DNA of 63,965 nt, filler included, from Babesia bigemina (taxonomy: Eukaryota): assembly GCF_000981445.1 (NCBI RefSeq). It is 12 parts of 12 records of this genome, joined end to end, with 100 filler letters (N's around TTAATTAATTAA, not from the genome) between each part and the next. Parts side by side here need not be neighbours in the genome. Positions count along the whole stretch, not along the records: positions 12,757 to 28,226 come from NW_012236942.1; 11 more parts are not named here. The stretch is one strand, 5' to 3'. Shown here piece by piece: positions 5,901 to 32,184 of the stretch (its first letter is position 1; each line of letters begins with the position of its first letter). The notes beneath the pieces were generated by a model, which had not been told where the DNA came from, made no database searches, and saw nothing but the letters and a program-made list of their open reading frames with translations. The translations under genes were made by a program, and so were the position numbers.

Positions 5901-8365
5901 TTTATGCTATCTTCTGCATCCTTTTTCTTAATGTCGTAATGCTTAAAGTAGGTATTTTTCAACTTTTCCAAGTTTGTCTTAGCGCTATCCTTATCATCTC
6001 TCGCCGCGTTCATGACGGCTTCACAAAGGTTTTGAAAATTTGATGTTAATGTATTGAACTGTGTTTGGACCTTGCCATTAATTACTCCGATTTGCGACAA
6101 CGCCTCCTCCACTCCCCTCTGAATGGCACCGATCGCCTGGGGGAGGGTGCCTGCTTCTCTAATGGTGTTGAAGTCAGCGGAGGTGAGGGCGTTAAGTTTG
6201 CTTTCCGTTTGGTCGACGAAACTATTATATTGATTGAACGTTGTCTTTGAATCAAGTGTGAGCGACTCAGCTGTATCACCTTTCAACCTACCATCAACCG
6301 TAGCCTTCACCTGCTCGATTGCGGAGTCCACGGCTTTGGCGAGGTTAGGCAGGTCGGTGCCGGGTTTGCCATCAGTCTGTTTGCCGGTTGCAATATTAAG
6401 CTTGCCGCAAAAATCGTTGGCTTTTTCGTATGCACTCTGAAGCATGGTTGCGATGTTAGGTGATTTGCCGAGAATGAATTTATCAAGGTCATCGGTTAGG
6501 TTCGAAGCTGCAGTTGATGTTAATATTAAAATTAATCTAACCGCAGATGTTAGATGATCTGTGTCATCGTAATAAATTTTAGTATTACTTTTTATCGTAT
6601 CGATGAACTTTTTAATTTCATGTTGGTCTTGCAGTTTCTCCTTAACTTTGGAAGCAAACGCTGTAAGATACTCCTTGATGCTATCCAAGGTTTCTTTCAC
6701 CGTCTTCTTCGCAGCTGGTACTTTATCTGTAGAACCTGCCGTCTGGGCAATCTCCACAACTCTTTGTTTGATGTTCGTTATGACTGTCTTCCTATCATCG
6801 ATGCCATAATGTTGAAGATACCTTTGTATTGCTCCGCCGACCAAACTTGCATTAATCCACTTATACAACGTACCATCATCTGCATTCTTTTCGAAAATGG
6901 TCTTAAATCCATCGGCATACGCATTCACCTTGTCCACAGCCCCTTTAAGACCACCACTGCTTCTTATGCCTGCCGTACCTTTAATATCGCTAACCTGGCT
7001 TATAATGTAATCGATGAGATTTGCGAATTTTTTTCTTTCTGTCTCTAGTACCCTGCTATATTTGTCTGTATTTATTTGATCATACAGCTTCCCAATCGCA
7101 TTCTTAATCTCCCCTACCTGCCTACTAACAGCATCCTTCACTTTCCACAAATCCTCCTTGAGCTTTCCGTCCATTTCTTTCACCTTCCCAAGCGCTGCTT
7201 TTACGTGCTCGTCAGCTGCTTTGTTGGCCTTGTTCCCAGCATCGAATAACTCGAATGCTCGGTCGTACAGCTCTTGGGCAGCGTCCTTAATCGGCTTGAC
7301 ATTGCTGAAGACAGAGTCTTCGCTAACTGCAGTAATGATTATATGAACCTTTTCTAACGCCGCTTCCACGGCAGCGTCTGCCTGCTTAATCCATTTAGTC
7401 AGATCCTGCACATACTCGAACAAGCTTTTTTCAATTGTTTTCAGCTCATCCAAAATTGCCCGGACCAACATCCGCAATTTCGTGACAAGTTCAGTCACTT
7501 CCTTACATATATGCGCATTAACTTTTTTTCCATGATCCGTACAGACACTCTCGATCCTAGACTTCATAGTATCAAAGTCTCTGCTTTCCTTATCTGACAA
7601 CTTCTTGAATCTCTCACTTTCATCTTTGACGAAGCCTACAGCTTTTATTACTTTGAGTGACAGCGGATGATTCAAATCATTAATATCGTTTTTCATCTCT
7701 GTTTTCGTATTCAGATTGAAAGTCTCATTGAACGTCGCAGCATACTGTTGACACTCTGACGACGCATTTCTAACAGACATTTCTGCCTTCTCGGCTTCTG
7801 AATGAAAACGTGTATCGATTTTTCCATTTATGTCATTTATCTTCATTTTTAGCGTGTTAATTTCTCTTTCGAAATTTTCTATTTGTTTCCTTACTTTCAA
7901 ATTACTTTTTCTAACACCATCATTATACCCCCGCACCCCTTTGACCACCTGCGCAATCGCAACATTAAAACCTTTTTTACCGGCGTGTTTATTGGTGTTA
8001 AGTGACTTAATGGCTTCATTTAAAGTATTGTTATGCTGCCCTAAATGGTCCTTGATGTTACTGAGAACACCACTCAAAAATCCCATCACCCCGTCACACA
8101 GCCTATCCAAGTCGGAGTACACAATGCCACTGCCATCGTAGCCGTTGGAGTCAGAGTTGAAGCCGAAGAAAGTCTCAAGGCCGGAACAGAGGTTAGTAAG
8201 AATGTTAGTAGGGTTGTTATTTGAGGTATTTTTTAGGTTCAAAATTTTACCAAATTTCTTGCCAAGCTCCCTAGGCGGCACATGGTCAGGGCAGTGGCAA
8301 GAGGTGGAAGAAGGGAAGGGAAGGGTGACAGAACACAAGTTATTGCTATGGTTTATAGAGGTCAT
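2954..8365 (-). CDS. ves1/VESA-like variant surface antigen, 1803 aa, class I tail; the only copy with its leader ATG in frame and uninterrupted
   Basis: ATG at 8365; GYDGSGIVYSDLDRLCDGVM; Cys-rich C-half; TM WLNVALWSLSLFYLICVMV; HIRSHL..PSSH tail ending LAKISYLQP. Confidence 0.85.
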   Translation of the reverse strand: MTSINHSNNLCSVTLPFPSSTSCHCPDHVPPRELGKKFGKILNLKNTSNNNPTNILTNLCSGLETFFGFNSDSNGYDGSGIVYSDLDRLCDGVMGFLSGVLSNIKDHLGQHNNTLNEAIKSLNTNKHAGKKGFNVAIAQVVKGVRGYNDGVRKSNLKVRKQIENFEREINTLKMKINDINGKIDTRFHSEAEKAEMSVRNASSECQQYAATFNETFNLNTKTEMKNDINDLNHPLSLKVIKAVGFVKDESERFKKLSDKESRDFDTMKSRIESVCTDHGKKVNAHICKEVTELVTKLRMLVRAILDELKTIEKSLFEYVQDLTKWIKQADAAVEAALEKVHIIITAVSEDSVFSNVKPIKDAAQELYDRAFELFDAGNKANKAADEHVKAALGKVKEMDGKLKEDLWKVKDAVSRQVGEIKNAIGKLYDQINTDKYSRVLETERKKFANLIDYIISQVSDIKGTAGIRSSGGLKGAVDKVNAYADGFKTIFEKNADDGTLYKWINASLVGGAIQRYLQHYGIDDRKTVITNIKQRVVEIAQTAGSTDKVPAAKKTVKETLDSIKEYLTAFASKVKEKLQDQHEIKKFIDTIKSNTKIYYDDTDHLTSAVRLILILTSTAASNLTDDLDKFILGKSPNIATMLQSAYEKANDFCGKLNIATGKQTDGKPGTDLPNLAKAVDSAIEQVKATVDGRLKGDTAESLTLDSKTTFNQYNSFVDQTESKLNALTSADFNTIREAGTLPQAIGAIQRGVEEALSQIGVINGKVQTQFNTLTSNFQNLCEAVMNAARDDKDSAKTNLEKLKNTYFKHYDIKKKDAEDSIKKIKHDLETLRAGPVTRALTFGEQFLKPEADKLRDETTEKLKQQIDDEVAKAKKELTTRARIDYVSTMKMLLLQYEDRVAKELTGIPQEISDDLITGFKGFMGTFAGENGRTVSDVNIEKLKSVATTISSTKYDPKHFTDLAKQFQSFWQPLNTYLKKETKRVHAANNEKTNPKPSGDETLYTSKIDSVSNELNRLLNHLCEHNRYDYRVPSMLDILVREVHGLHPESFSEPNTPLLETIAHGFRGLVGELGKAYISVYDSETFGGEMFEKQKLTAYGTKFAKICLTVVCTLKATLTDLTHNCKSLRGQQINKSTDVGKSFVGHGYAVSDAALQNGELQNRPTVAGENVAKRLLLPISGADGNQHLKWCKSNERRKADHFHVFDAVDCIFSHFEQYNELCHLLTASAKQHPCSVYDILIWLSGFPYTAVYATMRDITISDLFDNPHKKAAGDDELELTSTDMAAQSITAHPRNISYNYVRKAVDHICATSYDVLTAVVGTGDSRTVYASDFCNNSFNFHYPSDPSDCLDMLLDLLRRLLPVFRFLELQCNITPEHHGWSHCRYGRDIPTTKSQCNEHSSEEASGQAKCQVNCQPTSPLMLYLSDSLPGHLPHQLQSVGCRAKCSTCSKSAPGQPCLLPLGFKGFSGSTKTGRQLRDAIKTFLGTGLISSLMCLLPKPPSTLPEHFQFVFTLVGAFNASRDGNSNAVNAAFVKAIRKQSIDLYAEPSQLTGALSDAYKNGQSHEGRNHPRPTEADLSSLSKTESCKYASTDDVHCAPYLSTLYSDAYHYAAEKHAGLYLSWAVYLPWSFWQCLESLFRAFTNISCQDWGCRRCTHGTACKRGKHGAAYNCQCKGLVECRGVISTLYSFGFTFGNPATLSAAEGKRYCHNFYKQLHNVLNSSYFRKLFEKCDEFIFTIREPFIWLNVALWSLSLFYLICVMVGRLDVLHIRSHLRTPSSHRITAQSLLAAAQVGSLAKISYLQP

Positions 8366-8394: not shown

Positions 8395-11300
8395 TTGTAG
8401 AGTGGGTTAGGGAGCGATGTAGAGTGGATGAAGGGGCGATGCAGAGTGGATAAAGGGGCGATGTAGACTGGATAAAGGGGCGATGTAGAGTGGGTTAGGG
8501 AGCGATGTAGGGTGGGTTAGGGAGCGATGTGGAGTTGATAAGGGAGCGATGTGGAGTTGATAAGGGAGCGATGTAGAGTGGGTAAAGGGGCGATGTAGAG
8601 TGGGTTAGGGAGCGATGTAGAGTGGTTAAAGGGGCGATGTAGAGTGGTTAAAGGGGCGATGTAGAGTGGATAAAGGGGCGATGTAGAGTGGGTTAGGGAG
8701 CGATGTAAGGTGGATAAAGGGGCGATGTAGAGTGGGTAAAGAGGCGATGTAGAGTGGGTTAGGGAGCGATGTGGAGTGGACAAAGGGGCGATGTGGAGTG
8801 GATAAAGGGGCGATGTAGAGTGGGTAAAGGGGCGATGTAGAGTGGATAAAGGGGCGATGTGGAGTGGATAAAGGGGCGATGTAGGGTGGGTTAAGGAGCG
8901 ATGTAGGGTGGATAAAGGGGCGATGTGGAGTGGATAAAGGGGCGATGTAGAGTGGGTTAAGGGGCGATGTAGAGTGGATAAAGGGGCGATGTGGAGTGGG
9001 TTAAGGGGCGATGTAGAGTGGGTAAAGGGGCGATGTGGAGTGGATTAGGAGCGATGTGGAGTGGGTTAGGGAGCGATGTAGCGTGGAGTAAGGAGCGATG
9101 TAGAGTGGATAAAGGGGCGATGTAGAGTGGGTTAAGGGGCGATGTAGAGTGGATAAAGGGGCGATTAGAGGAGGTTAAGTAGCGATGTAGAGTGGGTTAG
9201 GGAGCGATGTAGAGTGGATAAGGGGCGATGTAGAGTGGGTTAAGGGGCGGTGTAGGGTGGATAAAGGAGCGATGTAGAGTGGATAAAGGGGCGATGTAGA
9301 GTGGATAAAGGGGCGATGTAGAGTGGATAAAGGGGCGATGTGGAGTGGATAAAGGGGCGATGTAGAGTGGGTTAGGGAGCGATGTAGAGTGGATTAGGGA
9401 GCGATGTAGAGTGGATAAAAGGGCGATGTAGAGTGCATAAAGGGGCGACGTAGAGTGGGTTAAGGGGCGATGTAGAGTGGATTGAGGAGCGATGTGGAGT
9501 GGATAAAGGGGCGATGTGGAGTGGATTAGGGGCGATGTAGAGTGGGTTAGGGAGCGATGTGGAGTGGGTAAAGGAGCGATGTAGAGTGGGTTAGGGAGCG
9601 ATGTAGAGTGGATAAGGGGCGATGTAGAGTGGATAAAGGGGCGATGTAGAGTGGGTTAGGGAGCGATGTAGAGTGGATAAAGGGGCGATGTAGAGTGGGT
9701 AAAGGGGCGATGTAGAGTGTGTAAAGGGGCGATGTAGAGTGGGTTAAGGAGCGATGTAGAGTGGATAAAGGAGCGATGTAGAGTGGATAAAGGAGCGATG
9801 AAGAGTGGGTTAGGGAGCGATGTGGAGTAGGTAAAGGGGCGATGTAGAGTGGGTAAGGGAGCGATGTAGAGTGGGTTAGGGAGCGATGTAGAGTGGATAA
9901 GGGGCGATGTGGAGTGGGTTAGGCAGCGATGTAGAGTGGGTTAAGGGGCGATGTAGAGTGGATAAAGGGGCGATGTAGAGTGGACAAAGGGGCGATGTAG
10001 AGTGGGTTAGGGAGCGATGTAGAGTGGGTTAAGGGGCGATGTAGAGTGGATTAGGGAGCGATGTAGAGTGGGTTAGGGAGCGATGTAGAGTGGATTAGGG
10101 AGCGATGTAGAGTGGATAAGGGGCGATGTAGAGTGGGTTAGGGAGCGATGTAGAGTGGGTTAGGGAGCGATGTATAGTGGTTAAAGGGGCGATGTAGAGT
10201 GGGTAAAGGGGCGATGTAGAGTGGGTTAGGGAGCGATGTAGAGTGGATAAAGTGGCGATGTGGAGTGGGTTAAGGAGCGATGTGGAGTGGATCAGAGAGC
10301 GATGTGGAGTGGATAAAGGGGCGATGTGGAGTGGGTAAAGGAGCGATGTAGAGTGGGTTAGGGAGCGATGTGGAGTGGATAAGGGGCGATGTGGAGTGGG
10401 TTAAGGGGCGATGTAGAGTGGATTAGGGAGCGATGTAGAGTGGATAAAGGGGCGATGTAGAGTGGAGTAAGGAGCGATGTGGAGTGGGTAAAGGGGCGGT
10501 GTAGAGTGGATAAAGGAGCGATGTAGAGTGGATAAAGGAGCGATGTAGAGTGGATAAAGGAGCGATGTGGAGTGACTAAAGGGGCGATGTAGAGTGGGTT
10601 AAGGAGCGATGTAAAGTGGGTTAAGGAGCGATGTAGAGTGGGTAAAGGGGCGATGTAGAGTGGATAAAGGGGCGATGTAGAGTGGATAAAGGGGCGATGT
10701 AGGGTGGGTTAAGGGGCGATGTAGGGTGGGTTAAGGGGCGATGTAGAGTGGGTTAAGGAGCGATGTAGAGTGGGTAGAGGAGCGATGTGGAGTGGATAAA
10801 AGGGCGATGTAGAGTGGATTAGGGAGGGATGTGGAGTGGATAAAGGGGCGATGTGGAGTGGACAAAGGGGCGATGTAGAGTGGGTAAGGGAGCGATGTAG
10901 AGTGGGTTAAGGGGCGATGTAACGTGGATAAAGGAGCGATGTAGAGTGGATAAAGGGGCGATGTAGAGTGGGTTAAGGGGCGATGTAGAGTGGGTAAAGG
11001 AGCGATGTGGAGTGGGTTAGGGAGCGATGTAGAGTGGATAAGGGAGCGATGTAGAGTGGAGTAAGGAGCGATGTAGAGTGGGTTAGGGAGCGATGGAGAG
11101 TGGGTAAGGGAGCGATGTAGAGTGGATAAGGGGCGATGTAGAGTGGATAGAGGAGCGATGTAGAGTGGGTAAAGGGGCGATGTAGAGTGGATAGAGGAGC
11201 GATGTAGAGTGGGTAAAGGGGCGATGTAGAGTGGGTTAGGGAGCGATGTAGAGTGGATAGAGGAGCGATGTAGAGTGGGTAAAGGGGCGATGTAGAGTGG

Positions 11301-12656
11301 GTTAGGGAGCGATGGAGAGTGGGTAAGGGAGCGATGTAGAGTGGATAAGGGGCGATGTAGAGTGGATAAAGGGGCGATGTGGAGTGGGTTAAGGAGCGAT
11401 GTGGAGTGGGTTAAGGGGCGATGTAGAGTGGATAAGGAGCGATGTAGAGTGGGTTAGGGAGCGATGTGGAGTGGGTTAAGGGGCGATGTAGAGTGGGTTA
11501 AGGGGCGATGTAGAGTGGGTAAAGGGGCGATGTGGAGTGATTAAGGGAGCGATGTGGAGTGGATAAGGGAGCGATGTAGAGTCCGTCAAGGGGCGATGTA
11601 GAGTGGATAAAGGGGCGATGTAGAGTGGGTTAGGGAGCGATGTGGAGTGGGTTAAGGGGCGATGTGGAGTGGATAAAAGAGCGATGTAGAGTGGATAAGG
11701 GGGCGATGTGGAGTGGATAGGGAGCGATGTAGAGTCCGTCAAGGGGCGATGTAGAGTGGATAAGGGGCGATGAAGAGTGGGTTAAAGGGCGATGTAGAGT
11801 GGATAAGGGAGCGATGTAGAGTGGATAAGGGAGCGATGTAGAGTGGGTTAGGGAGCGATGTGGAGTGGATTAGGGAGCGATGTAGAGTGGATAAAGGGGC
11901 GATGTAGAGTGGGTTAAGGGGCGATGTAGAGTGGATTAGGGAGCGATGTAGAGTGGATAAGGGGCGATGTAGAGTGGATAAAGGGGCGGTGTGAAGTGGA
12001 TAAGGGAGCGATGTAGAGTGGGTTAAGGGGCGGTGTGAAGTGGATTAGGGAGCGATGTAGAGTGGGTAAAGGAGCGATGTGGAGTGGATTAGGGAGCGAT
12101 GTGGAGTGGATTAAGGGGCGATGTAGAGTGGGTTAGGGAGCGATGTAAAGTGGGTTAAGGGGCGATGTAGAGTGGATAAGGAGCGATGTAGAGTGGGTTA
12201 GGGAGCGATGTGGAGTGGGTTAAGGGGCGATGTAGAGTGGGTTAAGGGGCGATGTAGAGTGGGTAAAGGGGCGATGTGGAGTGATTAAGGGAGCGATGTG
12301 GAGTGGATAAGGGAGCGATGTAGAGTCCGTCAAGGGGCGATGTAGAGTGGATAAAGGGGCGATGTAGAGTGGGTTAGGGAGCGATGGAGAGTGGGTAAGG
12401 GAGCGATGTAGAGTGGATAAGGGGCGATGTAGAGTGGATAAAGGGGCGATGTGGAGGGGATTAAGGAGCGATCTGGAGTGGATTAGGGGCCGATTTAGAG
12501 TGGATAAGGAGCGATGTAGAGTGGGTTAGGGAGCGACGTAGAGTGGGTAAAGGATGCGGTGTAGAGTGGGTTAAGGGGCGGTGTAGAGTGGGTAAAGCGG
12601 GCGATTGTAAGTGTGGGTTAAGGGGCGATGAAGAGTGGATAAAGGGGCGATGTGGA
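8395..12656. repeat. 4.3-kb repeat A array
   Basis: Continuous 22-bp units, many containing GGGTTAGGG; ends at linker. Confidence 0.98.
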
Positions 12657-12756: not shown

Positions 12757-14126
12757 TCTACATCGCCCCTTTGTCCACTCTACATCGCTCCTTAATCCAC
12801 CCTACATCGCTCCCTAATCCACTCTACATCGCTCCTTAACCCACTCTACATCGCCCCTTTATCCACTCCACATCGCCCCTAAACCACTTTAAATTGGCCC
12901 CTTAACCACTCTAAATCGGCCCCTTATCCACTCTAAATTGGCCCTTAAACCACTCTAAATCGGCCCTTAAACCAATCTACATCGCTCCTTTATCCACTCT
13001 ACATCGCCCCTTTATCCACTCTACATCGCTCCTTATCCACCCTACATCGCCCCTTAACCCACTCTACATCGCTCCCTAACCCACTCTACATCGCTGCCTT
13101 ATCCACTCCACATCGCTCCCTAACCCACTCTACATCGCCCCTTTATCCACTCTACATCGCTCCCTAACCCACTCTACATCGCTCCCTTATCCACTCTACA
13201 TCGCCCCTTACTCCACTTTACATCGCCCCTTAACCCACTCTACATCGCCCCTTAACCCACTCTACATCGCCCCTTAACCCACTCTACATCGCCCCTTAAC
13301 CCACTCTACATCGCTCCCTAACCCACTCCACATCGCTCCCTAACCCACTCCACATCGCCCCTTTATCCACCCTACATCGCCCCTTAACCCACTCTGCATC
13401 GCTCCCTAACCCACTCTACATCGCCCCTTAATCCACTCTACATCGCCCCTTAATCCACTCTACATCGCTCCTTACTCCACCCTACATCGCCCCTTTATCC
13501 ACTCCACATCGCCCCTTAACCCTCTCTTCATCGCTCCCTTATCCACTCTACATCGCCCCTTTATCCACTCTACATCGCTCCCTAACCCACTCTACATCGC
13601 CCCTTAACCCACTCCACATCGCTCCTTAACCCCCTCTACATCGCTCCTTTACCCACTCTACATCGCCCCTTTATCCACTCCACATCGCTCCTTTACCCAC
13701 TCCACATCGCTCCTTTACCCACTCTACATCGCCCCTTTACCCACTCTACATCGCTCCTTTGTCCACTCTACATCGCCCCTTTACCCACTCTACATCGCTC
13801 CTTTATCCACTCTACATCGCTCCTTTATCCACTCTACATCGCCCCTTAACCCACTCTACATCGCCCCTTCATCCACTCTACATCGCTCCCTAACCCACTC
13901 TACATCGCCCCTTTACCCACTCTACATCGCTCCCTTATCCACTCTACATCGCTCCCTAACCCACTCCACATCGCTCCTTTAACCACTCTACATCGCTCCT
14001 TTATCCACTCTACATCGCCCCTTTACCCACCCTTCATCGCCCCTTTACCCACCCTTCATCGCCCCTTAACCCACTCTACATCGCCCCTTTACCCACTCTA
14101 CATCGCCCCTTTATCCACTCTACATC
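12757..14126. repeat. Repeat A array, C-rich strand on +
   Basis: CCACTCTACATCGC(C/T)CC units leading into the gene leader. Confidence 0.97.
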
Positions 14127-14188
14127 CTTCGAATTACCTCGTCTTAATACCGCTATGACCTCTTTAAACCATAGCAATAACTTGTGCC

Positions 14189-17100
14189 TTGTCATCCTTC
14201 CCTACCCTTCTGGCTGAGTCCATCGACTGGTTGATCCAGGTTAGGCATGGGAATGGTGAGGGTGACAATGGTCTTGGTGAGTTGGCCAAAGCTTTGAAAA
14301 AGTTGATTGATGAGGCTATAACTAACGCTACTAACTCCCTCCAAGCCGAAAAATCTAAACTGGAATGCCCTGTTAAGTATAAGGGAAATGAGTCCACTTG
14401 CCAGTATTATGATAGGCTGATTAAGGAAGCCAAGGACGCTAAAAATTCTGTTCATCCTAAAACTCAAATTCCAATAACTGAACTTGAAAAACAAAAACAA
14501 CGCTGCCAAAATAACCACACTTATTACCGTGACGGTTCCAAGCAGAAAGCCTATGATGAAATTACTGAGCGTCAGAAACAACTTGATGATCTTAAAGATA
14601 AGCTTGAAACATTTACTAAAAGTCTCGAAACTAAAGATAATAATCTTTTAACGCATTTATGTGACGGCCTTCAGACTTTTCTTGGCTTCAACTCTGACTC
14701 CAAAGGCTACGACGGCACTGGGATTGTGTACTCTGACTTGGACAGGCTGTGTGACGGGGTGATGGGATTTCTGAGTGGTGTTCTCAGTAACATCCACAAG
14801 CATTTAGGGCAGCATAAAGGAGAAATAAACAATGCAATTACGTCACTTGAGACCAATAAACACGCCGGTAAAAAAGGTTTTAGTGTTGCGATTGTGAAGG
14901 TGGTCGAAGGGGTGGGGGGGTATAATGATAAGGTGAGGGAGAGTAATGAGAGAATTAGGAAAACGATAGAAACGTTAACTGATGCTATCGTAAAAATGGA
15001 AAAAGTTCTTTCCGGGATCATCAATCATGATCACGTTAGTAAGATTGAGTCCACTGTTAGTGATGTAATCAAAGATGCCAAGGAGTATGCTGTAGGCATC
15101 TTGCAAATAAATCGAGATATAGAAGATCTCCAACCTGATCTAAAAGGGAAAATAAACAACGCAGCGGATAACATAAATTATCAGCGCTGGATTCTCAGTC
15201 AAGCGTATGAGACGCAAAAGAGTCAGTGGACAACAATCACAGGTTTGGTCAGTCAACAACTTAATGCTGCTGTAGAACGGATTAATGAAGAAACATCAGG
15301 AAAAATTAGTGTTGTTAAAAGTCGATTAATTTTAAAAATGGACGATCTTAGAAACAAAATTTGGGATGTCAATAATACACTTAAAGGCCATATTTCCCAG
15401 CTGAGTTCCTGGATAGAAAAGGCTCAAATCGCAGTTGATGAAGCATTGCGAAAAGTCACGCAAATTGTAAACGAAGCTAGTGGTAACTCCAGCACAGCTC
15501 ATAAGTGCAAACTCGTTGAAGCTGCTGTAAAGTTACAAGATAAGGCTTTGACACTACACGGAGCTTACGAGGCTGCGAAATCGGCGTTGCCGAAATTGGC
15601 AAATAAGATTAGTAATGCTGTTAAAGGGTTAGACGATGCAATTATGAAGGATCTAGAAGGATTGGAAAAGAGTATTAACATGGAGTTGGCTGCCTATGTC
15701 AAGGAGCAGATTGAAACTGTATTGAAGGCCATTCAGGCATCTGATGCTTCCAAAGGAGGTGGTCTTATTAATGCCGGCAGTGGTGTTGAAGCTTTGAAAA
15801 ACGTGAGCGCATTGAAAGAGGCCCTTGACTCAACGCAAGAAGAATTGAGCAAAAACATAGAATTCGCGTTAGACGTGCTCAAAGATACCGCTGGCTCAAA
15901 AACCTGGAAAGCTGACGAATCTAATCCCGTTCTGAAGAACCTCACAGCTGATCTTGAGAGTGCAGTTGGATCCGCGATGACTGCGTATGTCAAAGGTAGC
16001 GATGAGTTACGAAATAAAATGGTAGATTACCAAAAACATATAACGTCTGCGCTTACTCCGGCAATAGGCGAAATCACACAAAAAGCCCTGGAACCTATTA
16101 CGAGCGCAATATCTAGTAAGAGTGCTACTGACAGTGATATCACTAAAACTGCAACTGAATTAACAGGAACTCATCTCAAACAACTCTGCGTTAGTATTAT
16201 CAATGCCGCATCTATAGACTCAGGTAGTGTCAGAGGAAAATTGGAAAAGCTGACTGAATATATTGCAAAAGATAAGCATAATATGGATGACACTCTACAG
16301 AAACTCCAAAATGATTTTAACACATTGCAATCCGGTAAGCTGAATTCGCTTATTGAAGAAGCTCAGCAAATCATTCAATATGCATCTGAACAAAGCAATG
16401 CGATTATAAAACGCCTTAACGCTCACGTCGCATTCCAAATTAATAACGCTCGAGATACTATCACAAACACTATCACAACGAATTATGTCCTATCGCTGAA
16501 ATCACTGGTTCAAGAGGTAGCAACAAAAATAAACGTTGAACTTCATCACCTCCCTGAGATGATAATTGCGGATGCGACCAAAAAATACAAAGGTTTCATG
16601 AAGCTGCTACATAGAAAAATTAACGAAAATCAATTAGATGTTGCCATTCCCGACGACTCAAACCTATATCATTTGTCCTTCAATGCTCAACAGTTTTTCG
16701 CTGCTCTACTGTACTCGGTGAACAATGATAGAAGCATTTTACCCTCTCCGAGAAACATTTTGGAGTTGAAAAGCAAAGTTCATAACCTTGTCACCTCCCT
16801 CTCCACCTTCAACCGCCACTTCCGTTCCAACCTCTCCTCCCTTTCCTCCCTCCTCGGTTCCATCCGCCCCGCATCCTACGCCGACGACAGCAACCCCCTG
16901 CTCGAGTGTCTCAAAAAGGGCGTGCAGAGGATGTGCGATGAGCTCGACAAGGCGTACGTGAGCGTGTATGATAGTGAGACTTTCGGTGCTGAGCTCGTCG
17001 AAAAGAATAAAGTAACGCCGTATGGCACTCAGTTGTCCAAGGTGTTCCTGTCCATCTTGGAGATATACAACGAAGATTTGAGGTACTTGAAAAATCGTAC

Positions 17101-19069
17101 CATCCACAAGTGGTCAACAAGTAGAATATATGCTGGTAGCAGTTTAGGCACATTTTTGCAAAATAGCGGCTACGGCGTGTCCAACAATGAGACCGAGCAG
17201 AATGGTCACTTGGACAAGAATGCCAACGGTACAAAGATCATGAGTCTACTTGTAGGCGAAAATTACGGTCACGTTTACCACAAGAATAAGAATTACAAAT
17301 TCCAGCTTGAGAACCTATACGACTGCCTTACGACTTATTACCGCATTCGTCACATCTCCACTGCAGGGTCGAAGAAGTCGCCGTGTAATATCTACGAAAT
17401 GCTCTGCTGGCTTACGAGTCTGCAATACAGTTCAGTATATCTCAACTTTATATCCGATGAGTTTAGTGACTTGTTCGATAAGCGGGAAAATAAAATCGCC
17501 GGAACCAATGAGGTCGACGGTATCTCATTCGAGGACCAAACTGCTAACAAGTTGGCAGCATACCCACAGAATATCACGTATACAGAAGTACATAATGCTA
17601 TCGTACATGTAACTTCGCTGGCACCCGTTCTTCTCACCAGCATCGTCGGGTATGGAAACGAGTATACTACGTACGCCGTTGACTTCTATTGTAATACGCA
17701 TAATTTCGCATACCCTTCATCGAGCGTTGACTGCCTGAACACGTTAATTGAACATCTCCGTAGAATTGTACCAGTTTTCCAATTCTTGCTTACCCGATGT
17801 GGCTTTGCCGCTAAGTACCACGGTTGGTCGGACTGTACGTATGGCAGAGATGTGAAATCATCAACGTGGCCATGTAATGAGCACTCAAAGACTGAAGTTG
17901 AGTGCCAATCGACATCGCCTCTTCAATCCTTCCTACGTGACTGCCTACCCGGTCACTTGCCTCATGAGCTCACTTCCACTGGCTGCAAATCGGAATGTAA
18001 GACGTGTCCCAAAAGCCTACCCGGTGCGCCATGTATAACACCACTTGGGTTCAGAGGCTTCACTGGAAGCAAGAAGACAGGCAAAGAGCTATGTAAAGTG
18101 CTGACCAAATTCCTCGGTAACGGGGTCGCTTCGTGCCTCTTTGGCCTTATTCCTAAACCGCCCTCAACATTGTCGCAACACTTTGCTTTTACGATGTCAC
18201 TTGTCAGGAATTGGCAATCAAACGGCACGCATTCTCTTAAAACAAATATTGAAGCCGCCGTCACGGAGCAATCTATTCGTCTTTTTGAACAACCCAGCGA
18301 TCTCACAGCTGCGCTACGTAACGCGTACGGTGACGTACGGAGCAGCCATAAGCGTGAAAGCCATCCAGAGGCAAAAAATGCAGACCTCTGTACGCTGTCT
18401 ACGTCAACGTCATGTACATATGCTAGTAGCGATAAGCTGCACTGCGGTCCATATCTTTCAACTCTGTGCTTGGAAGAATATCGTTACTTCGCCGATAAAC
18501 ATTGTAACTTATACCTCTCATGGGCAGTGTACCTCCCATGGACATTCTACGGTTATCTTAAAGCCCTGCTACAAGCCTTTTGCAGCATATCTTGCCAAGA
18601 CTGGGGATGTTCGAAATGCATCCATGGAGTCAAATGTAAGAAAGGACAGCACGGTGTCGACAACTGCCAGTGCCGTGGACTTGTTGAATGCCGTGGCGTA
18701 CAAAGCACTTTCTACAATTACGGATTCACGTTTGGCAATCCTGAAACACTTCTAGCAAAAGAAGGTAAAAAATATTGCCATCATTTCCATCAACAGCTGA
18801 AGTCGGTGCTTGAATCGCAGTATTTCGCAAAACTATTTGAGGAGTGCGATAATTTCCTCTGGATCATCAGGCAGCCGTTCATATGGATGAACGTCGCACT
18901 CTGGTCGCTGTCCCTCTTCTACCTCATCTGCGTGATGGTTGGCAGACTGGACGTGCTCCACATACGCTCACACCTGAGGATACCGTCGTCGCACAGCATA
19001 ACGGCGCAATCATTGTTGGCTGCAGCGCAAGTCGGAAGGCTTGCCAAGATATCGTATCTACAACCGTAA
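14189..19069 (+). CDS. ves1/VESA-like antigen ORF, class I tail; no in-frame ATG until 14762 (5'-defective or silent cassette)
   Basis: Open frame from TTG; ESIDWLIQV resembles the ves N-terminal EAIDW motif; leader ATG at 14155 is out of frame; ends LAKISYLQP. Confidence 0.8.
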   Translation: MSSFPTLLAESIDWLIQVRHGNGEGDNGLGELAKALKKLIDEAITNATNSLQAEKSKLECPVKYKGNESTCQYYDRLIKEAKDAKNSVHPKTQIPITELEKQKQRCQNNHTYYRDGSKQKAYDEITERQKQLDDLKDKLETFTKSLETKDNNLLTHLCDGLQTFLGFNSDSKGYDGTGIVYSDLDRLCDGVMGFLSGVLSNIHKHLGQHKGEINNAITSLETNKHAGKKGFSVAIVKVVEGVGGYNDKVRESNERIRKTIETLTDAIVKMEKVLSGIINHDHVSKIESTVSDVIKDAKEYAVGILQINRDIEDLQPDLKGKINNAADNINYQRWILSQAYETQKSQWTTITGLVSQQLNAAVERINEETSGKISVVKSRLILKMDDLRNKIWDVNNTLKGHISQLSSWIEKAQIAVDEALRKVTQIVNEASGNSSTAHKCKLVEAAVKLQDKALTLHGAYEAAKSALPKLANKISNAVKGLDDAIMKDLEGLEKSINMELAAYVKEQIETVLKAIQASDASKGGGLINAGSGVEALKNVSALKEALDSTQEELSKNIEFALDVLKDTAGSKTWKADESNPVLKNLTADLESAVGSAMTAYVKGSDELRNKMVDYQKHITSALTPAIGEITQKALEPITSAISSKSATDSDITKTATELTGTHLKQLCVSIINAASIDSGSVRGKLEKLTEYIAKDKHNMDDTLQKLQNDFNTLQSGKLNSLIEEAQQIIQYASEQSNAIIKRLNAHVAFQINNARDTITNTITTNYVLSLKSLVQEVATKINVELHHLPEMIIADATKKYKGFMKLLHRKINENQLDVAIPDDSNLYHLSFNAQQFFAALLYSVNNDRSILPSPRNILELKSKVHNLVTSLSTFNRHFRSNLSSLSSLLGSIRPASYADDSNPLLECLKKGVQRMCDELDKAYVSVYDSETFGAELVEKNKVTPYGTQLSKVFLSILEIYNEDLRYLKNRTIHKWSTSRIYAGSSLGTFLQNSGYGVSNNETEQNGHLDKNANGTKIMSLLVGENYGHVYHKNKNYKFQLENLYDCLTTYYRIRHISTAGSKKSPCNIYEMLCWLTSLQYSSVYLNFISDEFSDLFDKRENKIAGTNEVDGISFEDQTANKLAAYPQNITYTEVHNAIVHVTSLAPVLLTSIVGYGNEYTTYAVDFYCNTHNFAYPSSSVDCLNTLIEHLRRIVPVFQFLLTRCGFAAKYHGWSDCTYGRDVKSSTWPCNEHSKTEVECQSTSPLQSFLRDCLPGHLPHELTSTGCKSECKTCPKSLPGAPCITPLGFRGFTGSKKTGKELCKVLTKFLGNGVASCLFGLIPKPPSTLSQHFAFTMSLVRNWQSNGTHSLKTNIEAAVTEQSIRLFEQPSDLTAALRNAYGDVRSSHKRESHPEAKNADLCTLSTSTSCTYASSDKLHCGPYLSTLCLEEYRYFADKHCNLYLSWAVYLPWTFYGYLKALLQAFCSISCQDWGCSKCIHGVKCKKGQHGVDNCQCRGLVECRGVQSTFYNYGFTFGNPETLLAKEGKKYCHHFHQQLKSVLESQYFAKLFEECDNFLWIIRQPFIWMNVALWSLSLFYLICVMVGRLDVLHIRSHLRIPSSHSITAQSLLAAAQVGRLAKISYLQP

Positions 19070-19214: not shown

Positions 19215-19510
19215 AGCAACGTGTTGACCTAGCAACCAGGTGAAGTGCTAACCTAGCACCCAGGCAACGTGTTGAGCTAGCACCCAGGCAACGTGCTAAG
19301 CTGGCACCCAGGCAAAGTGCTAAGCTAGCACCCAGGCAACGTGCTAAGCTGGCACCCAGGCAAAGTGCTAAGCTAGCAACCAGGCAAAGTGTTAACCTAG
19401 CACCCAGGCAACGTGTCAACCTAGCAACCAGGCAAAGTGCTAAGCTAGCACACAGGCTACGTGCTAAGCTAGCACCCAGGCAAAGTGCTAACCTAGCAAA
19501 CAGGCTAAGT
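19215..19510. repeat. Repeat C array
   Basis: 24-bp units. Confidence 0.94.
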
Positions 19511-19522
19511 TGATGCTTACTG

Positions 19523-19700
19523 TAGCGATGACATGGTCACGGCAGCGATGACATGGTCACGGCAGCGATGACATGGTCACGGCAGCGATGACATGGTCAC
19601 GGCAGCGATGACATGGTCACGGCAGCGATGACATGGTTAAGGCAGCGATGACATGGACACGGCAGCGATGACATGGTCACGGCAGCGATGACATGGTGAC
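19523..19700. repeat. Repeat B array
   Basis: GGCAGCGATGACATGGTCAC units. Confidence 0.95.
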
Positions 19701-19716
19701 CTAAGTGGTGATTATT

Positions 19717-20016
19717 ATCCACTCTACATCGCCCCTTAACCCACTCTACATCGCCCCTTAACCCACTCTACATCGCTCCTTTACCCACTCTACATCGCTC
19801 CTTAACCCACTCTACACCGCCCCTTTATCCACTCTACATCGCCCCTTTACCCACCCTTCATCGCCCCTTTACCCACTCTACATCGCCCCTTTACCCACTC
19901 TGCATCGCTCCTTAACCCACTCTACATCGCCCCTTATCCACTCTACATCGCCCCTTATCCACTCTACATCGCTCCCTTATCCACTCCACATCGCTCCCTT
20001 ATCCACTCTACATCGC
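19717..20016. repeat. Short repeat A array
   Basis: About 14 units of 22 bp between junction motif and leader. Confidence 0.95.
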
Positions 20017-20076: not shown

Positions 20077-23000
20077 TTGACACCCTTCCCTACCCTTCTG
20101 ACTGAGTCCATCGACTGGTTGATCCAGGTTAGGTATGGGAATGGTGAGAATGGTAAGGGTCTTGGTGAGTTGTCTCAAGCTTTGAAAAAGTTGATTGAGG
20201 AGGCTATTGAGAAGGCTGAGAAGTCCCTTAATGCCGAAAAATCTAAGCTTTCTTGCCCCTTCAAATACTCTGATAAAGAGACTTACTGTCAGTACTACGA
20301 GAAGCAGATTAAGCACTGTGATGAAGAACTTAATAAACTTCAATCTCAACAACCTAAAAAACCTAATAATGATTACGATAAAAACATTCTAACAACCACC
20401 AAAAAACGTTGCGATGATGCTAAAAAAGCCTGTATTAATGCTCACAAAAAACATCCTCCATCTGCTGCCATAAAGGACATTGAGTCCAAGTTGGAGCAGG
20501 TTAAAAAGCTTGGAGAGAGTCTTAAAGGATTGACTGAAAATGACAATTGTAAAAATCTCCTTGTTAATTTATGTGACGGCCTTCAGACTTTCCTCGGCTT
20601 CAACTCTGAGACCAAAGGCTACGACGGCAGTGGGATTGTGTACTCCGACCTTGACAGGCTGTGCGACGGGGTGATGGCGTTTTTGCTTAGCTGCCTGGAG
20701 GGAAGTATAGACCTATTAAAACATTACAATCCTGATATAGTAAATACAATTCACGCTTTAAAATCTTCAATAGGCAAGGGGCTTGGCGTTTCGGGATTTG
20801 CGCAGGCCATTGGGAAGGTTAAGAGCGGACTGCAGGGGTATGAGGAGGGGATGACGGCAAGAACTGAGGGAGTTAAATCTGAATTAAGTTCACTTAGCAG
20901 CACTATTAACAGACAAAAAACTGAATTTAATAATATGCATAATAGTAAATTAGTTCAGCAGTTGTCCGTTGTGTCCACTAAGGCCTCTGAGTACTGGAAT
21001 AAGGTCATCGGTGTTGAGCTGGCGAATTCAGACTTAGATGAGAGCCTCGGACATAAGTTATTGCCAGCGATTAATTTGGTGAAACAGGCGGTAAAAACCC
21101 TGAAAGATGTTTCCGAAGATAAAGCCGTTACGTCACAAGCTGGGATTGTCGACACTACGTTGGAAGCGAAGAAAAGAGAGATAGTTGCACTTGTTGGAAG
21201 TCATTCAGATAATGTGCAGAAAGCATTGAAAGCTGAGTTCATAAAGGTAGGTGACAATATAAGCCGCTTGTGTCACGTGAGAGATGAGAATTTCGCGTTA
21301 ATGAAAGCGGCTATTGAGTTCACCCAACAAGAAGTAAGGGTCTCCATAGAGAGCTTCACCGATGAATACAGAAAAGAGATCACGAAGTCCTTCGACAATT
21401 TAAGAATTCAAATGATGTCCATTGATCCATTGAAGGATTCGGGTTCAACGCTTAAATGTCTTCTTGAACAGGATGTTCTGACTATTAAATCCAAAGTGCT
21501 CGAGATAGGTAATCAGCTCAGTAGACACGTATCGAATTTAGAAGCTAGAATTGGCAAAGCTGATAGTTTCGTTGATACTGCGTTGGAGAGGGTGAACGAG
21601 ATTCTTAGGGAGGTTGAAGAGGATACTGGACCAAATGCTAAACCGATTAAAGATGCATCCAAGGACATCACAGACCATGCTGAAACGTTACATGGGAGGT
21701 TTGAAGCAATGAAAGGCAAATATGAGACTATTTATAAAATCATCCATGGTGACAATACTGGTACAGAAAGCGTGTTGATGAAACTCAAGACGCTCAAAAA
21801 GCAGATTAGTGTGCCTCATTCGATGGACGCATTCACTGGAGGTGGTGACTGGGGTGTGAACCACGAAATCAAAGAGCTAACAAGCAGAATAAGTAACAAT
21901 GTTAAGGGGTATGTTAGCACATTGGTTGAAGCCCTTGAGGTGGGCGTGAATGAGGCAGCGACGAGTGATCCTCTTGGTGATGGACTTGGTATAAAAGGCA
22001 TTGAAGCTCTGAGTAGACACGTTGCCGAACATTTGGATGAGCTGGGAATGTTTGGCAGACGGCTAAATGAGGCTCTCCCAGCGGTGGTTGCCAAAGGCCC
22101 AAGTAGTGAACTTGCTACCGATCTGGAAACATTCCTCTATGTGTTCAAAGACGCGAAAGCGAATTGGAGTACAACGAAACCGCCACTCTCTGATATGTTT
22201 AGAGATCTCCAAGAAGAGTTTAGCACTAAGGCGATTGCCGGCGTCAATGACAATCAAGTAAAAGATCTTATAGTGGCTGCGGTCAACAAAGGTATCGAAA
22301 GGCTTCAATCGGCGTTGGAAATTCCAGTCATCAAAGAGATGGAGAAGGTTCATAAGATTTCGGACATGCATAAATATTTCGCAAATTCAGCTGTGCAAAA
22401 CTTGAAAGAAAAGGCTACTGTAGTTTCCTCCTCCCTCAATGCTATGTGCGCAGCTGTTAAGAAAATGGCAGGACAGGAGGCTAAGGGTTTGCAAAACGTT
22501 TTAAACACGCTGAAAAACGAGGCGATTAGTAAGCAGAGAAAACATTCCGAAAGCCTTGGCGAACTGCAACAACAACTTAGCAGATTTCAGAAGGAACAAT
22601 TGTCCGATCAAGAAAGCGGTCAAATTCAGAATGCTATTGCTAACGTCGTAAAAACAATTAATGAAGATCTTGAAAAGTTACCAGGCGCTGTGGACAATGC
22701 GCAAAAAGAGGCAGAGAAGTTAATGACTCAATTGCAAGACGATATAAATGTCATTCGAAATGAGATAAATACGATAAATGATAAGGTGAACGCTGCGGAA
22801 AAGGTTCTAACTTCATCGATCGATGCTCTGAGCAGGGCTTATATACATGCCGAAAACACATCGATGAGAGCCGTGCTATCACTTCGAAAGACCCTCATCC
22901 AAATGGTTAACTCCGCCTTCTCCGCCCTCACCCACCAAGTCCAATCCCTCTTCGCGAAGCAGAAGCAGGCCGACCTGTCCGCGCTGGAGGGCGTTGTCAC

Positions 23001-25764
23001 GGCGCAGTTGCAGGAGATTGAGAGGGTTATTCAGGCGGATAGGGGGAGCGGGGTGAAGGGGTATTTGGGGAAGATGAAGGAGAGTATCACAGACATCTTA
23101 GACAATCCCGCTCCTGCTCCTTTAGTACATAGCGATACATCTATTCTGTCTGTTAAATTGAAGTCTAACTTCGAACCTCTTCTTGAGTACGTAATAGAGC
23201 AAATATCTTCCGCCTCCCCCTCTGCAGTTTCAAAAGTTTATACGGTTGAAGGCCTGAAAAGTAAGCTCACCACTCTCTTGGAGAAACTTGCCGAGTCCAA
23301 GCATTTCGACGATAGATTCTCCAGCAATTTGCACTCCCTTAATGATGCTCTGGATACATTCAAACCGCCGAAATACGATAATGGAAAGAACCCATTGCTG
23401 CTAGACATCCTGAGAGATAGTATGAGGGCTCTGTCCGAGCAGCTTGGTTATGCCTACATCAACACGTACGACGGGCATCCGAAAATGGACCTTACGAAAC
23501 TGGTGTTAACTAAAACAGCCCCTCCGCCTAAAGTGAATGAATCAAGTAAAGCGGGCGAACAAGTGTTAACTCCGGCTGGTGAAAAGCTGTCTAAGGTGTG
23601 CCTTACTGCACTTGATATCTTGTTTCATGATCTGGAAGAATTAAGACAAGCGTTGCGAGCTGACGATGATTGGAAAACAAAGAAAGTATGTCTGATCGAA
23701 TTGTCGAACGGTAAGAAACATATGAGCGCACTTGGACTCTGGCTCAGTAACAATGGCTTCGTGGTGTCGGATAATTCCAACAAGCAAAACGGCGAGTTGG
23801 ACAAGAGATGTGATGGTAAGAAACTCATGCAAGTATTGACCGGAAGTAAGACACACGTATTCGCTGGAGAGAACAATACAACTGGTGCACTTGAAACGCT
23901 GCATTACTATCTCATTACATATTACAAAGCGAACCACTTCCGCCATATTCCGTCGCCCAAAGCCCCGTGCAGCATTTACCAGATGTTAGAGTGGCTGTGC
24001 GGATTATACTACAATCCGATGTTCGGGAAGCTTGTAGACGGCTTTGAGGCACTGTTTGATCGGAAGACGCACAAGTTAGATGTCGCATTGCCAGAGGAAA
24101 TGAATGACGTCGTTCAATCGCCTCTCAAAGCGAATCACCTAACCACTACGCTCCGTTCTGTCTGCTTCCAATCCGAAACGGTATTAGTCGGCATCCTTGG
24201 GCACGGTCACGCTGACGGTGTATACTCCACTGACTTTCATATAAACACGGATGACTTGCTGTATCCGACGGACTTTAACACTTTAGTCTGCCTCTTATTC
24301 GACATCTTGAAATGCCTACAGCAACAACTGTACTTCCTATATGAACAGTGTTGTCATCCAACAGACGTCAGCGGTTGGTCGGAGTGCTGGTATGGCCAGG
24401 GTATTGCCGGCTCAGGCTGGCAGTGCAATGACCTTCAGTGTCATAACCAAAAATGCAACCAAACAGCTGACCAAAAGCGTGACCAAATACATAACCAAAG
24501 CGGTGATCAACATCCTGAATGCGGCTTAAAATCGCCTCTTCAGTCTTTCCTCGAAGACGGTTTGCAAGGCTTCTTACCGCATAATGTGTCAGCCAGGGGG
24601 CCTAAAATGTCATGCTCAAGTTGTTCTAGAGCACCACCTGGTACTCCATGTAAGACACCGATGGGATTCCCAGCAATAGGCATCGCAGCATCCCATCGGA
24701 AAACTGGTCATCATTTGAGCGATGTGCTTGTTGACTTTTGTGGCGGCGCAGGGTCTCCTCTCACGAAGCTGTGCAGCCTATTTAACTGTATTCTCCCCAG
24801 CGCTCCCAAAACGCTTGGTGACATGTTCTCATTTTACTACTATCTCCTACACGACTGGGACGACGCCAATGGAAATGGTAACAAGCATAAGAAAATCGCA
24901 TTTGATGAACAAGTTAGCAAAGCCTACTTCAACGACGAATACAATCTCGGCGACATATCTCTGCTGTTTAAATACACGAAGCACGCAGCTTTTGTTCATG
25001 TACCAACCAACGAAGTGGAGAGTTTATATCATTACAGCGGCAACCTCTGTAGTATATACAACCCTGCCGATGAGTGTTACGTCACCGGCAGAACATGTGG
25101 CGCCTATATGACACCGTTGTCTTTGGAGGTATATTCCACATTGACCTCTAAAAATGCGGGTGGCTACCTGTCGTGGATTCTCTACCTTACCGAAACGTTC
25201 TACAACTTACTATGCCAGCTCTACAAAAGATGCGAAGATAGTTGCGCCGGTAGGAGTAGGAAATGCCGTGTCGCCGGTTGTGTCCAAGGCGGTTGCAAAG
25301 TTGCCGCGGTTGATACTCTGGACACTAAAAAGCATGGTGAGTCGTGCAACTCAATCGTTCAATGCCAAAATACATTACCGACATTATTCACGTACGGCTT
25401 CACATATGGCGACAGGATATCACTAAACGGAAATGTTGATGACAAATGCGTTCCTAAGAGGAGATGCAAGGATTTCATCGAACAACTCGGCAGAGTATGC
25501 TCCGACAAATCGGTACTTGCTAAGCTAATACATGAGACCATTCCCAATTTCATGTGGGCCATCAGAAGCAAATTCTTCTGGACCACCGTCGCCCTCTGGC
25601 TCCTCTCTTTATTGTACCTCATCCACATCATGGTCATCCGCCTAGACCTGCTCCACATCAAATCGCATCTACATAGTCCATCATCACATCGCATAGCTGC
25701 GCAATCGCTGTTAGCTGCTGCACGCGTTAACAAGCTTAACAGGGTGTTTTATCTGCAACCATAA
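20077..25764 (+). CDS. ves1/VESA-like antigen ORF, class II tail; no in-frame ATG until 20674
   Basis: ESIDWLIQV, GYDGSGIVYSDLDRLCD, CGLKSPLQSFLEDGL, TM, ends LNRVFYLQP; leader ATG at 20043 is out of frame. Confidence 0.8.
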   Translation: MTPFPTLLTESIDWLIQVRYGNGENGKGLGELSQALKKLIEEAIEKAEKSLNAEKSKLSCPFKYSDKETYCQYYEKQIKHCDEELNKLQSQQPKKPNNDYDKNILTTTKKRCDDAKKACINAHKKHPPSAAIKDIESKLEQVKKLGESLKGLTENDNCKNLLVNLCDGLQTFLGFNSETKGYDGSGIVYSDLDRLCDGVMAFLLSCLEGSIDLLKHYNPDIVNTIHALKSSIGKGLGVSGFAQAIGKVKSGLQGYEEGMTARTEGVKSELSSLSSTINRQKTEFNNMHNSKLVQQLSVVSTKASEYWNKVIGVELANSDLDESLGHKLLPAINLVKQAVKTLKDVSEDKAVTSQAGIVDTTLEAKKREIVALVGSHSDNVQKALKAEFIKVGDNISRLCHVRDENFALMKAAIEFTQQEVRVSIESFTDEYRKEITKSFDNLRIQMMSIDPLKDSGSTLKCLLEQDVLTIKSKVLEIGNQLSRHVSNLEARIGKADSFVDTALERVNEILREVEEDTGPNAKPIKDASKDITDHAETLHGRFEAMKGKYETIYKIIHGDNTGTESVLMKLKTLKKQISVPHSMDAFTGGGDWGVNHEIKELTSRISNNVKGYVSTLVEALEVGVNEAATSDPLGDGLGIKGIEALSRHVAEHLDELGMFGRRLNEALPAVVAKGPSSELATDLETFLYVFKDAKANWSTTKPPLSDMFRDLQEEFSTKAIAGVNDNQVKDLIVAAVNKGIERLQSALEIPVIKEMEKVHKISDMHKYFANSAVQNLKEKATVVSSSLNAMCAAVKKMAGQEAKGLQNVLNTLKNEAISKQRKHSESLGELQQQLSRFQKEQLSDQESGQIQNAIANVVKTINEDLEKLPGAVDNAQKEAEKLMTQLQDDINVIRNEINTINDKVNAAEKVLTSSIDALSRAYIHAENTSMRAVLSLRKTLIQMVNSAFSALTHQVQSLFAKQKQADLSALEGVVTAQLQEIERVIQADRGSGVKGYLGKMKESITDILDNPAPAPLVHSDTSILSVKLKSNFEPLLEYVIEQISSASPSAVSKVYTVEGLKSKLTTLLEKLAESKHFDDRFSSNLHSLNDALDTFKPPKYDNGKNPLLLDILRDSMRALSEQLGYAYINTYDGHPKMDLTKLVLTKTAPPPKVNESSKAGEQVLTPAGEKLSKVCLTALDILFHDLEELRQALRADDDWKTKKVCLIELSNGKKHMSALGLWLSNNGFVVSDNSNKQNGELDKRCDGKKLMQVLTGSKTHVFAGENNTTGALETLHYYLITYYKANHFRHIPSPKAPCSIYQMLEWLCGLYYNPMFGKLVDGFEALFDRKTHKLDVALPEEMNDVVQSPLKANHLTTTLRSVCFQSETVLVGILGHGHADGVYSTDFHINTDDLLYPTDFNTLVCLLFDILKCLQQQLYFLYEQCCHPTDVSGWSECWYGQGIAGSGWQCNDLQCHNQKCNQTADQKRDQIHNQSGDQHPECGLKSPLQSFLEDGLQGFLPHNVSARGPKMSCSSCSRAPPGTPCKTPMGFPAIGIAASHRKTGHHLSDVLVDFCGGAGSPLTKLCSLFNCILPSAPKTLGDMFSFYYYLLHDWDDANGNGNKHKKIAFDEQVSKAYFNDEYNLGDISLLFKYTKHAAFVHVPTNEVESLYHYSGNLCSIYNPADECYVTGRTCGAYMTPLSLEVYSTLTSKNAGGYLSWILYLTETFYNLLCQLYKRCEDSCAGRSRKCRVAGCVQGGCKVAAVDTLDTKKHGESCNSIVQCQNTLPTLFTYGFTYGDRISLNGNVDDKCVPKRRCKDFIEQLGRVCSDKSVLAKLIHETIPNFMWAIRSKFFWTTVALWLLSLLYLIHIMVIRLDLLHIKSHLHSPSSHRIAAQSLLAAARVNKLNRVFYLQP

Positions 25765-25889
25765 TCGTACTCACGTGTTTACTATCCACACTCACCTAGC
25801 ATCACCTACTCACCTAACAAATGAATTGTGCTTTAATCTGTTGTATCACTCATTAATCGTTGTATGTGATTGTGTAGTAGTTAACTAAA

Positions 25890-26055
25890 GTGCTGACCAA
25901 TGCCATGACCAAAGTGCTGACCAAGGTGCTGACCAAAGTGGTGACCTATGTGCTGACCAAAGCCATGACCAAAGTGCTGACCAATGCCATGCCCAACCTG
26001 GTGACCAATGTGCTGACCAAGGTGCTGACCTATGTGCTGACCAAGCACCTGACCA
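25890..26055. repeat. 12-bp tandem array (repeat E) downstream of class II gene
   Basis: Unit GTGCTGACCAA(A/G/T) with GCCATGACCAA variants. Confidence 0.92.
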
Positions 26056-26059
26056 AGTT

Positions 26060-27380: not shown

Positions 27381-27404
27381 GTGGTGACCAAAGTGGTGAT
27401 TATT

Positions 27405-32183: not shown

Positions 32184-32184
32184 C

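Follow-up and report, generated by a model that had tools for sequence, protein, structure and literature searches.

A conserved block within the ves1b-like genes of Babesia bigemina is a real, well-supported breakpoint of a familiar sort. We consider that it is probably an island of identity of about 140 bases in genes that otherwise diverge strongly, constrained at the protein level, whose flanks are paired at random through homology-guided recombination that joins unrelated types only there. Such recombination is likely a common way of generating antigen diversity, and these genes present it in an unusually clean form.

The window, by which we mean the whole 63,965-nt stretch of DNA that was analysed, is not one chromosomal stretch but 12 contigs (about 2.3–15.5 kb) with eleven 100-nt spacers, and the seven genes bearing the motif at the core of the block are spread over six of these contigs. 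The preliminary description had sorted the sequence upstream of the motif into modules N1–N3 and that downstream into D1–D4, labels that we retain. Four of the seven genes run through to their own stop, and their C-termini show a hydrophobic segment, identified by eye, and a conserved tail, both common to the homologues. Gene 14189 (14216–19069, + strand; N2 start ESIDWLIQV, D1), with a transmembrane segment and conserved tail at its end, is without the family's first ~16 codons, its earliest in-frame ATG being the block's own Met, and it stands in tandem with gene 20077 (20104–25764, +; N2 start, D4), which has the same 5' truncation. Gene 8365 (2954–8365, −; N1 stub, D1) is open from the leader ATG for 1803 aa, and gene 54652 (54652–59727, +; D2) begins with an N1 stub that is interrupted, ahead of the block, by an in-frame stop. 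The other three genes run into contig ends that cut them: gene 46903 (46903–50078, +; N3, D2), gene 51576 (50179–51615, −; N2-like plus N3, D3), which a 22-bp array directly adjoins, and gene 36064 (33177–36085, −; N3, D3), which has the 3' end of a retroelement at its head and no repeats. We also observe three further ves1b-like 3' halves cut by contig starts (39343–41087, 42374–44022 and 60353–62879, +), a further ves1b-like 5' start at 27906–28226, and two types of cytoplasmic tail (…ISYLQP and …VFYLQP) at the gene ends 2954, 19069, 25764 and 59727 whose linkage to the Cys-rich region before them is weak. At 963–1550 (−) and 31743–32207 (−), next to 20-bp arrays, lie short Cys-rich ORFs whose C-terminus carries a hydrophobic segment; they have no Pfam match above cut-off and are possibly the last exons of ves1a-type genes.

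Two protein searches with the motif region (120 of 146 and 120 of 135 matches listed, the first skewed to D1, copies >90% identical collapsed) returned at least 165 distinct proteins; three are the window's own, and B. bigemina and B. ovata account for all of them. These homologues are mostly 1,400–2,100 residues long with a C-terminal transmembrane segment and conserved tail, and many copies lie on a 3.5-Mb contig, which agrees with the ves1b insertions reported on chromosome 3 (PMC4066756). From their sequences, we infer that the seven genes are putative ves1b-like variant erythrocyte surface antigen copies, the label ves1b being chosen over ves1a because of protein length, the species range (B. 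bigemina and B. ovata) and the copies on the 3.5-Mb contig. No list with ves1a/ves1b family labels was found in the accessible supplements of PMC4066756, whose proteomics table does list some of the chromosome-placed homologues. The Pfam family VESA1_N (PF12785) matches none of the 12 window proteins, for which Pfam gives coiled-coil-type matches only, all below cut-off; it is above cut-off in one of nine homologues tested (P0004, 25.4 bits), and the B. caballi VESA1_N protein P0168 carries a degenerate version of the block's first half. Four annotated B. ovata proteins (P0028, P0121, P0125 and P0133) carry the block twice and are probably tandem genes fused in annotation.

The motif lies at 14705–14764 (+), where the preliminary description had placed it, and recurs in the six other genes at 20617+, 47440+, 54874+, 8143−, 35563− and 50853−; its degenerate DNA pattern has seven matches in the window and none in 100 shuffles. 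Although the motif is conserved as described, the conserved unit is wider, extending from about −21 to +27 aa. In gene 14189, this block of ~47–49 codons (14642–14788, +) reads LL.NLCDGL.TFLGFN..SKGYDG.GIVYSDLDRLCDGVMGFLSGVL, with the motif as its core, and its counterparts lie at 20554–20700 (+, gene 20077), 47377–47523 (+, gene 46903), 54811–54957 (+, gene 54652), 8060–8206 (−, gene 8365), 35480–35626 (−, gene 36064) and 50770–50916 (−, gene 51576). Since the block spans ~140 nt, a switch may sit anywhere inside it; the point right after the motif, at which the earlier wording had types switch, is only where the change becomes visible. The motif is found in 103 of the first 120 homologues, the remaining 17 being annotated from the motif's own methionine, and in the homologue alignment the block has the highest conservation of the ectodomain: across 143 anchored proteins, 11 positions are 100% conserved and 28 of 56 reach at least 90%. 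Among the window copies, block DNA identity is 75–100% (median 85%), with 14/7/26 variable columns by codon position. It is very unlikely that the block sequence is a dedicated recombination signal at which a site-specific enzyme or a DNA structure cuts: the seven window copies agree fully at several codons, but third positions vary (9 of the 13 variable columns of the motif core), which argues that the block is held by protein constraint and is not a special DNA site.

We compared ancestry across the block using pairwise protein identities in 45-residue windows on each side (gap of 49) in three sets: 54 B. bigemina genes from short contigs (six window genes included), 24 from megabase contigs and 50 B. 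ovata proteins. One assembly may underlie both B. bigemina sets, and B. ovata alone is surely independent. All tests on homologues are at the protein level; from 169 sequences, these 54 + 24 + 50 entered the linkage and quartet tests and 106 the whole-protein boundary scan. The linkage tests leave out proteins with <66 residues before the motif (including those annotated from the block's Met and gene 54652), anchors beyond residue 420, P0050 (a duplicate of gene 51576) and P0121 (a near duplicate). Across the block, the rank correlation (rho) of identities is 0.03, −0.06 and 0.03 in the three sets, whereas a gap of this size immediately downstream gives 0.22, 0.25 and 0.21, and upstream the values are 0.72, 0.61 and 0.43. 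Likewise, quartet agreement across the block is 0.32/0.28/0.35, where chance is 0.33, versus 0.68/0.65/0.70 at an equal gap just downstream. The segments on either side of the motif are therefore incongruent in all three protein sets, and the homologues bear out the earlier claim that N and D modules assort independently, for which the seven window genes alone are insufficient. Among 33 boundaries along the protein, the block is the only one with |z|<1 in all three sets (106 sequences); the boundaries 451/545 and 498/592 are also near chance in two of the three, at low power. The transmembrane boundary is weakly linked too (quartet agreement 0.44/0.62/0.36), and the transmembrane segment is likely a second exchange point.

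The large flank types also assort freely (n = 34, mutual information 0.088 against 0.146 on permutation, p = 0.82). A first test, which pooled short-contig and chromosome genes and used BLAST-derived identities, gave a residual association (Mantel 0.31, mutual information p = 0.022) because the sets were mixed and BLAST coverage had gaps. Identity vectors from BLAST HSPs failed to pick up a known 100% tract, and these coverage gaps inflated the correlations; exact-seed tracts and window-wise global alignment were used instead. The 22 genes with long N-termini show a weak, non-significant trend across the block (rho 0.15, p = 0.07). Flanks might in principle look unlinked with no exchange at the block, through saturation or through independent 5' decay after truncation: windows in the middle of the protein are near saturation and weakly linked as well, and the short-contig copies are mostly 5'-truncated. 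We regard this as extremely unlikely, as type structure in the N-terminal half is strongest in the two flanks (90th percentile identity 0.71 and 0.69), the mostly intact chromosome genes break at the block too, and near-identical tracts (98–100%) that stop in the block largely exclude it.

Recent exchange was traced in 106 B. bigemina sequences as tracts of at least 50 residues and at least 95% identity, shorter ones not being sought. We find 61 such tracts of 50–950 aa with 110 closed ends, and ves1b-like genes are mosaic along their whole length. Six of the 110 ends fall inside the block (hazard ratio 2.3, p = 0.05); against a uniform rate, the block ends give p = 0.10, 0.04 and 0.11 at three thresholds, and tract ends are not independent events. 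With the other 104 ends elsewhere, a borderline enrichment of ~2-fold, and other weak boundaries in existence, the block is no exclusive crossover hub, and the earlier proposal that it is the hub is not supported. What stands of the proposed "recombination anchor" is that flank linkage is lost exactly across the block in all three sets. The special trait of the block ends is that they join unrelated types: identity past these six ends is 16–29% (median 26%), whereas 38 other ends located before +800 have a median of 47% (p = 0.001). None of the eight recent tracts that touch the block runs through it (two of the eight are open at their 5' end), as a dedicated signal would lead one to expect, but such a signal is at odds with the many tract ends elsewhere and with the inferred switches, which are scattered over −1 to +27 with no fixed crossover point.

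Individual mosaics place the switch within the block, and in pairwise comparison of window DNA identity switches there. The upstream part of gene 36064 is 98% identical to P0012 from −150 to +15 (165 aa) and its downstream part is 100% identical to P0009 from +5 to +342 (337 aa), with the switch from P0012-like to P0009 at codons +5 to +15, inside GIVYSDLDRL. The 47440 and 50853 copies, in genes 46903 and 51576, are identical over 346 nt (47163–47508, +) up to +68 and about 20–45% identical beyond +90. The 14705 and 8143 copies are 23–43% alike upstream and 63–97% alike from +60 to +270, and for the 54874 and 8143 copies this is reversed. The common tract of genes 46903 and 51576 (46981–47508 versus 50785–51312) has its start near a second conserved mini-block, LGGFVGESESVKKAV, some 150 aa before the motif (about −150), and its end in the main block; the tract shared by P0012 and gene 36064 likewise starts near the LGGFVGESESVKKAV mini-block and stops in the main block. 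With these two sites as anchors, the N3 segment may be mobile as a cassette.

An abrupt end of identity at the block edge, as in the 346 shared bases, is also what might be produced if an assembler had merged the reads of paralogues at their common block. The window contigs are short, and single mosaics, notably those of genes 46903 and 36064, are known from assembled contigs alone. Yet the same uncoupling is present in the 24 megabase-contig genes and in the 50 B. ovata proteins, whose assembly was built with MinION and PacBio reads (PMC5660447). For most mosaic flanks, moreover, identity to any other copy is only 60–90%, and merging does not yield such flanks; the N3/D3 junction of gene 51576 recurs on two other public contigs (P0050 and P0185). 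An assembly artefact is hence scarcely credible. As types D1–D4 also occur in B. ovata, at 47–67% identity, the uncoupling in that long-read assembly indicates that the pattern is old and not an effect of assembly.

The D1–D4 labels and the six N-by-D combinations among the seven genes were correctly described. The N modules are combined as stated but were partly mislabelled, as they are not three alternatives at one position. N2, (E/A)S/IDWLIQV, is the family's common N-terminus, and an N2 start is what is left of it; the N3 segment (LGGFVG...) is optional and comes after N2-type sequence, both being present in gene 51576, P0012 and P0114. In N1, a short stub, leader makes up the first ~19 codons, with variable columns flat by codon position (8/10/9 in eight copies). 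Genes 14189 and 20077, both labelled N2, belong to different types just upstream of the block. The full family N-terminus (M..KKLTDCPENLRE(S/A)IDWLIQV) is found in none of the seven window genes, and no LTDCP-like peptide occurs in any frame of the window. Among the homologues, the full N-terminus is present in 17 of 24 chromosome-placed and 2 of 60 short-contig proteins of B. bigemina, and in 14 of 54 from B. ovata, counts that depend on the annotators' starts. On this sequence evidence, the "combinatorial N-termini" of the preliminary description appear to be in part truncation classes, of putative coding status, behind repeat arrays.

Directly upstream of gene 14189 lies a 22-bp tandem array (12757–14126, +), and similar arrays head genes 8365, 20077, 46903, 51576 and 54652 and the gene start at 27906, so that six of the seven window genes and one other gene start have such an array. 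A leader of ~85–90 nt, at 14127–14215 (+) for gene 14189, separates the array from the coding sequence; it is present in eight window copies with non-coding-like variation. The homologues P0016 and P0082 are publicly annotated with starts in the leader that read on in the coding frame, so the leader may support expression. The kilobase between the tandem genes 14189 and 20077 contains no family-type first exon and holds repeat arrays (a stack of 24-bp, 20-bp and 22-bp arrays at 19229–20016, +) and the leader only. Ordered stacks of 24- or 12-bp, 20-bp and 22-bp arrays are seen between or before antigen genes at this and other places, among them 25887–27877, 8396–12653 and 51579–54214; the 22-bp arrays reach 4.2 kb, are strongly G/C-skewed and lie at many contig ends.

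The exception, gene 36064, is preceded by the 3' end of a non-LTR retroelement (36167–36652, −) with an endonuclease-like C-terminus that is 100% identical to the 1347-aa reverse-transcriptase protein P0166. The P0166 cluster has 10 members, the full-length ones 99.7–99.9% identical. The element joins ~100 nt before the gene, within 1–2 nt of the leader end in other N3 copies. In B. ovata P0181, a reverse transcriptase is flanked by ves1b-like sequence, and the B. caballi protein P0168 is a gene model that fuses reverse transcriptase and VESA1. LINE-like elements have already been published in these species (PMC9141347).

We propose that the block would be kept for a structural role. An AlphaFold model (49 sequences, 400 residues; pLDDT 81, pTM 0.41) predicts it as helix, short hairpin, loop and helix, set between long helices (H143–156, hairpin, H172–194; pLDDT 65–90), whereas a single-sequence model of the region (pLDDT 46) is unusable. 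Exchange among close relatives would resolve anywhere along the gene and leave type linkage intact, while exchange between types would resolve in the block, as the sole place where all copies match. Summed since before the split of B. bigemina and B. ovata, between-type exchange would erase linkage at the block. In repeat-headed arrays, the block's upstream partner would be the 20/22-bp array plus leader, and a few young 5' ends (N1 and N3) could thereby be copied onto many downstream types.

The loss of linkage at the block fits a higher exchange rate or selection on the products alike. Under selection, exchanges between types would occur at many places, and only those at the block, which likely marks the fold boundary where an N-terminal helical hairpin gives way to downstream helices, would yield a working protein and persist. 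Such selection, the chief rival reading, is compatible with the homology-guided exchange that we favour and may add to it. The conservation of the block as protein and its modelled place between helix groups are in keeping with selection, as are fold matches that fall separately on model residues 19–141 and 228–343; a hotspot in the var genes has, too, been put down to selection rather than rate (PMC4270465). With the 400-residue model, however, Foldseek gives no significant match (best E = 1.0) and VIA-align no known fold (best Z 10.7, to generic helical bundles), and at a pTM of just 0.41 the contacts are unreadable. Moreover, uncoupling is equally complete in 5'-truncated copies, some with a stop before the block, where selection on an N-terminal product should be weak. 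As the main explanation, we therefore find selection rather unlikely and retain homology-guided recombination within the block.

The block is a precise and testable address for type-switching recombination in a variant-antigen family of an important cattle parasite, whose antigenic variation has received very little sequence-level study. Mosaicism here has two layers, exchange between near relatives anywhere and exchange between types at one block. Being nearly invariant, the block also lends itself naturally to universal priming when transcribed copies are to be profiled.

In Trypanosoma brucei, silent VSG cassettes are incomplete tandem antigen genes headed by 70-bp repeats. The genes described here resemble them in being incomplete tandem genes behind a repeat array, a candidate 5' homology anchor: six of seven window genes stand behind a 22-bp array and all seven are without the family start. 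The sequences are unrelated, and the likeness is one of layout only, known here from gene sequence alone. It is a tentative possibility, which we hold to be the less likely case, that B. bigemina has a putative VSG-style archive of tandem, start-less ves1b cassettes with a 20/22-bp array upstream and a universal block inside. In such an archive, whole N-terminal ends would be swapped as units between archive and expressed copies, making up an N-by-D combinatorial library unlike the short-patch microhomology conversion of B. bovis.

Crossovers in conserved blocks are already known from var genes, and mosaicism of the ves1 family has been published. Jackson et al. 2014 (PMC4066756) report that the ves1 families recombine and that BbigVes1b genes hardly ever have orthologues in another strain. 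The genes described here share with the BbigVes1b genes of B. bigemina and B. ovata their long proteins, C-terminal transmembrane segment, conserved tail and many copies on a contig the size of chromosome 3. That source describes a dominant breakpoint near low-complexity tracts for BbigVes1a and B. bovis ves1-alpha, and the text gives none for ves1b; truncated copies and 20/22-bp arrays are unmentioned in its passages searched. Within the accessible parts of PMC4066756, PMC9141347, PMC5660447, PMC6630957, PMC7485966, PMC10463595 and PMC4270465, we found no published account of the block as a breakpoint or of repeat-headed truncated copies, while the breakpoint plot in Figure S6 of PMC4066756, a picture, may show the block. 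In Plasmodium falciparum, var crossovers lie in 4–48-bp identity blocks within ~80-bp homologous stretches (Claessens et al. 2014, PMC4270465). The present genes are alike in the in-frame ectopic exchange of divergent paralogues at high-identity stretches with domain order kept; they differ in that the proteins are unrelated and that var crossovers were seen de novo at many blocks, whereas here one universal block is inferred from extant sequences. A further comparison is with B. bovis ves1 genes at the locus of active transcription, which are patch mosaics drawn from multiple loci, and many tract ends observed here agree with this (PMC7485966, PMC6630957). Breakpoints of segmental gene conversion in B. 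bovis fall in 2–35-bp patches unrelated to highly conserved regions (PMC7485966), and its tracts average ~100 bp with breaks at microhomology, while ours, sought from 50 residues upward, are 50–950 aa long and the type-switching ones end in the block. The pattern in the ves1b-like genes therefore reflects either a slower, longer-tract process or a difference between species.
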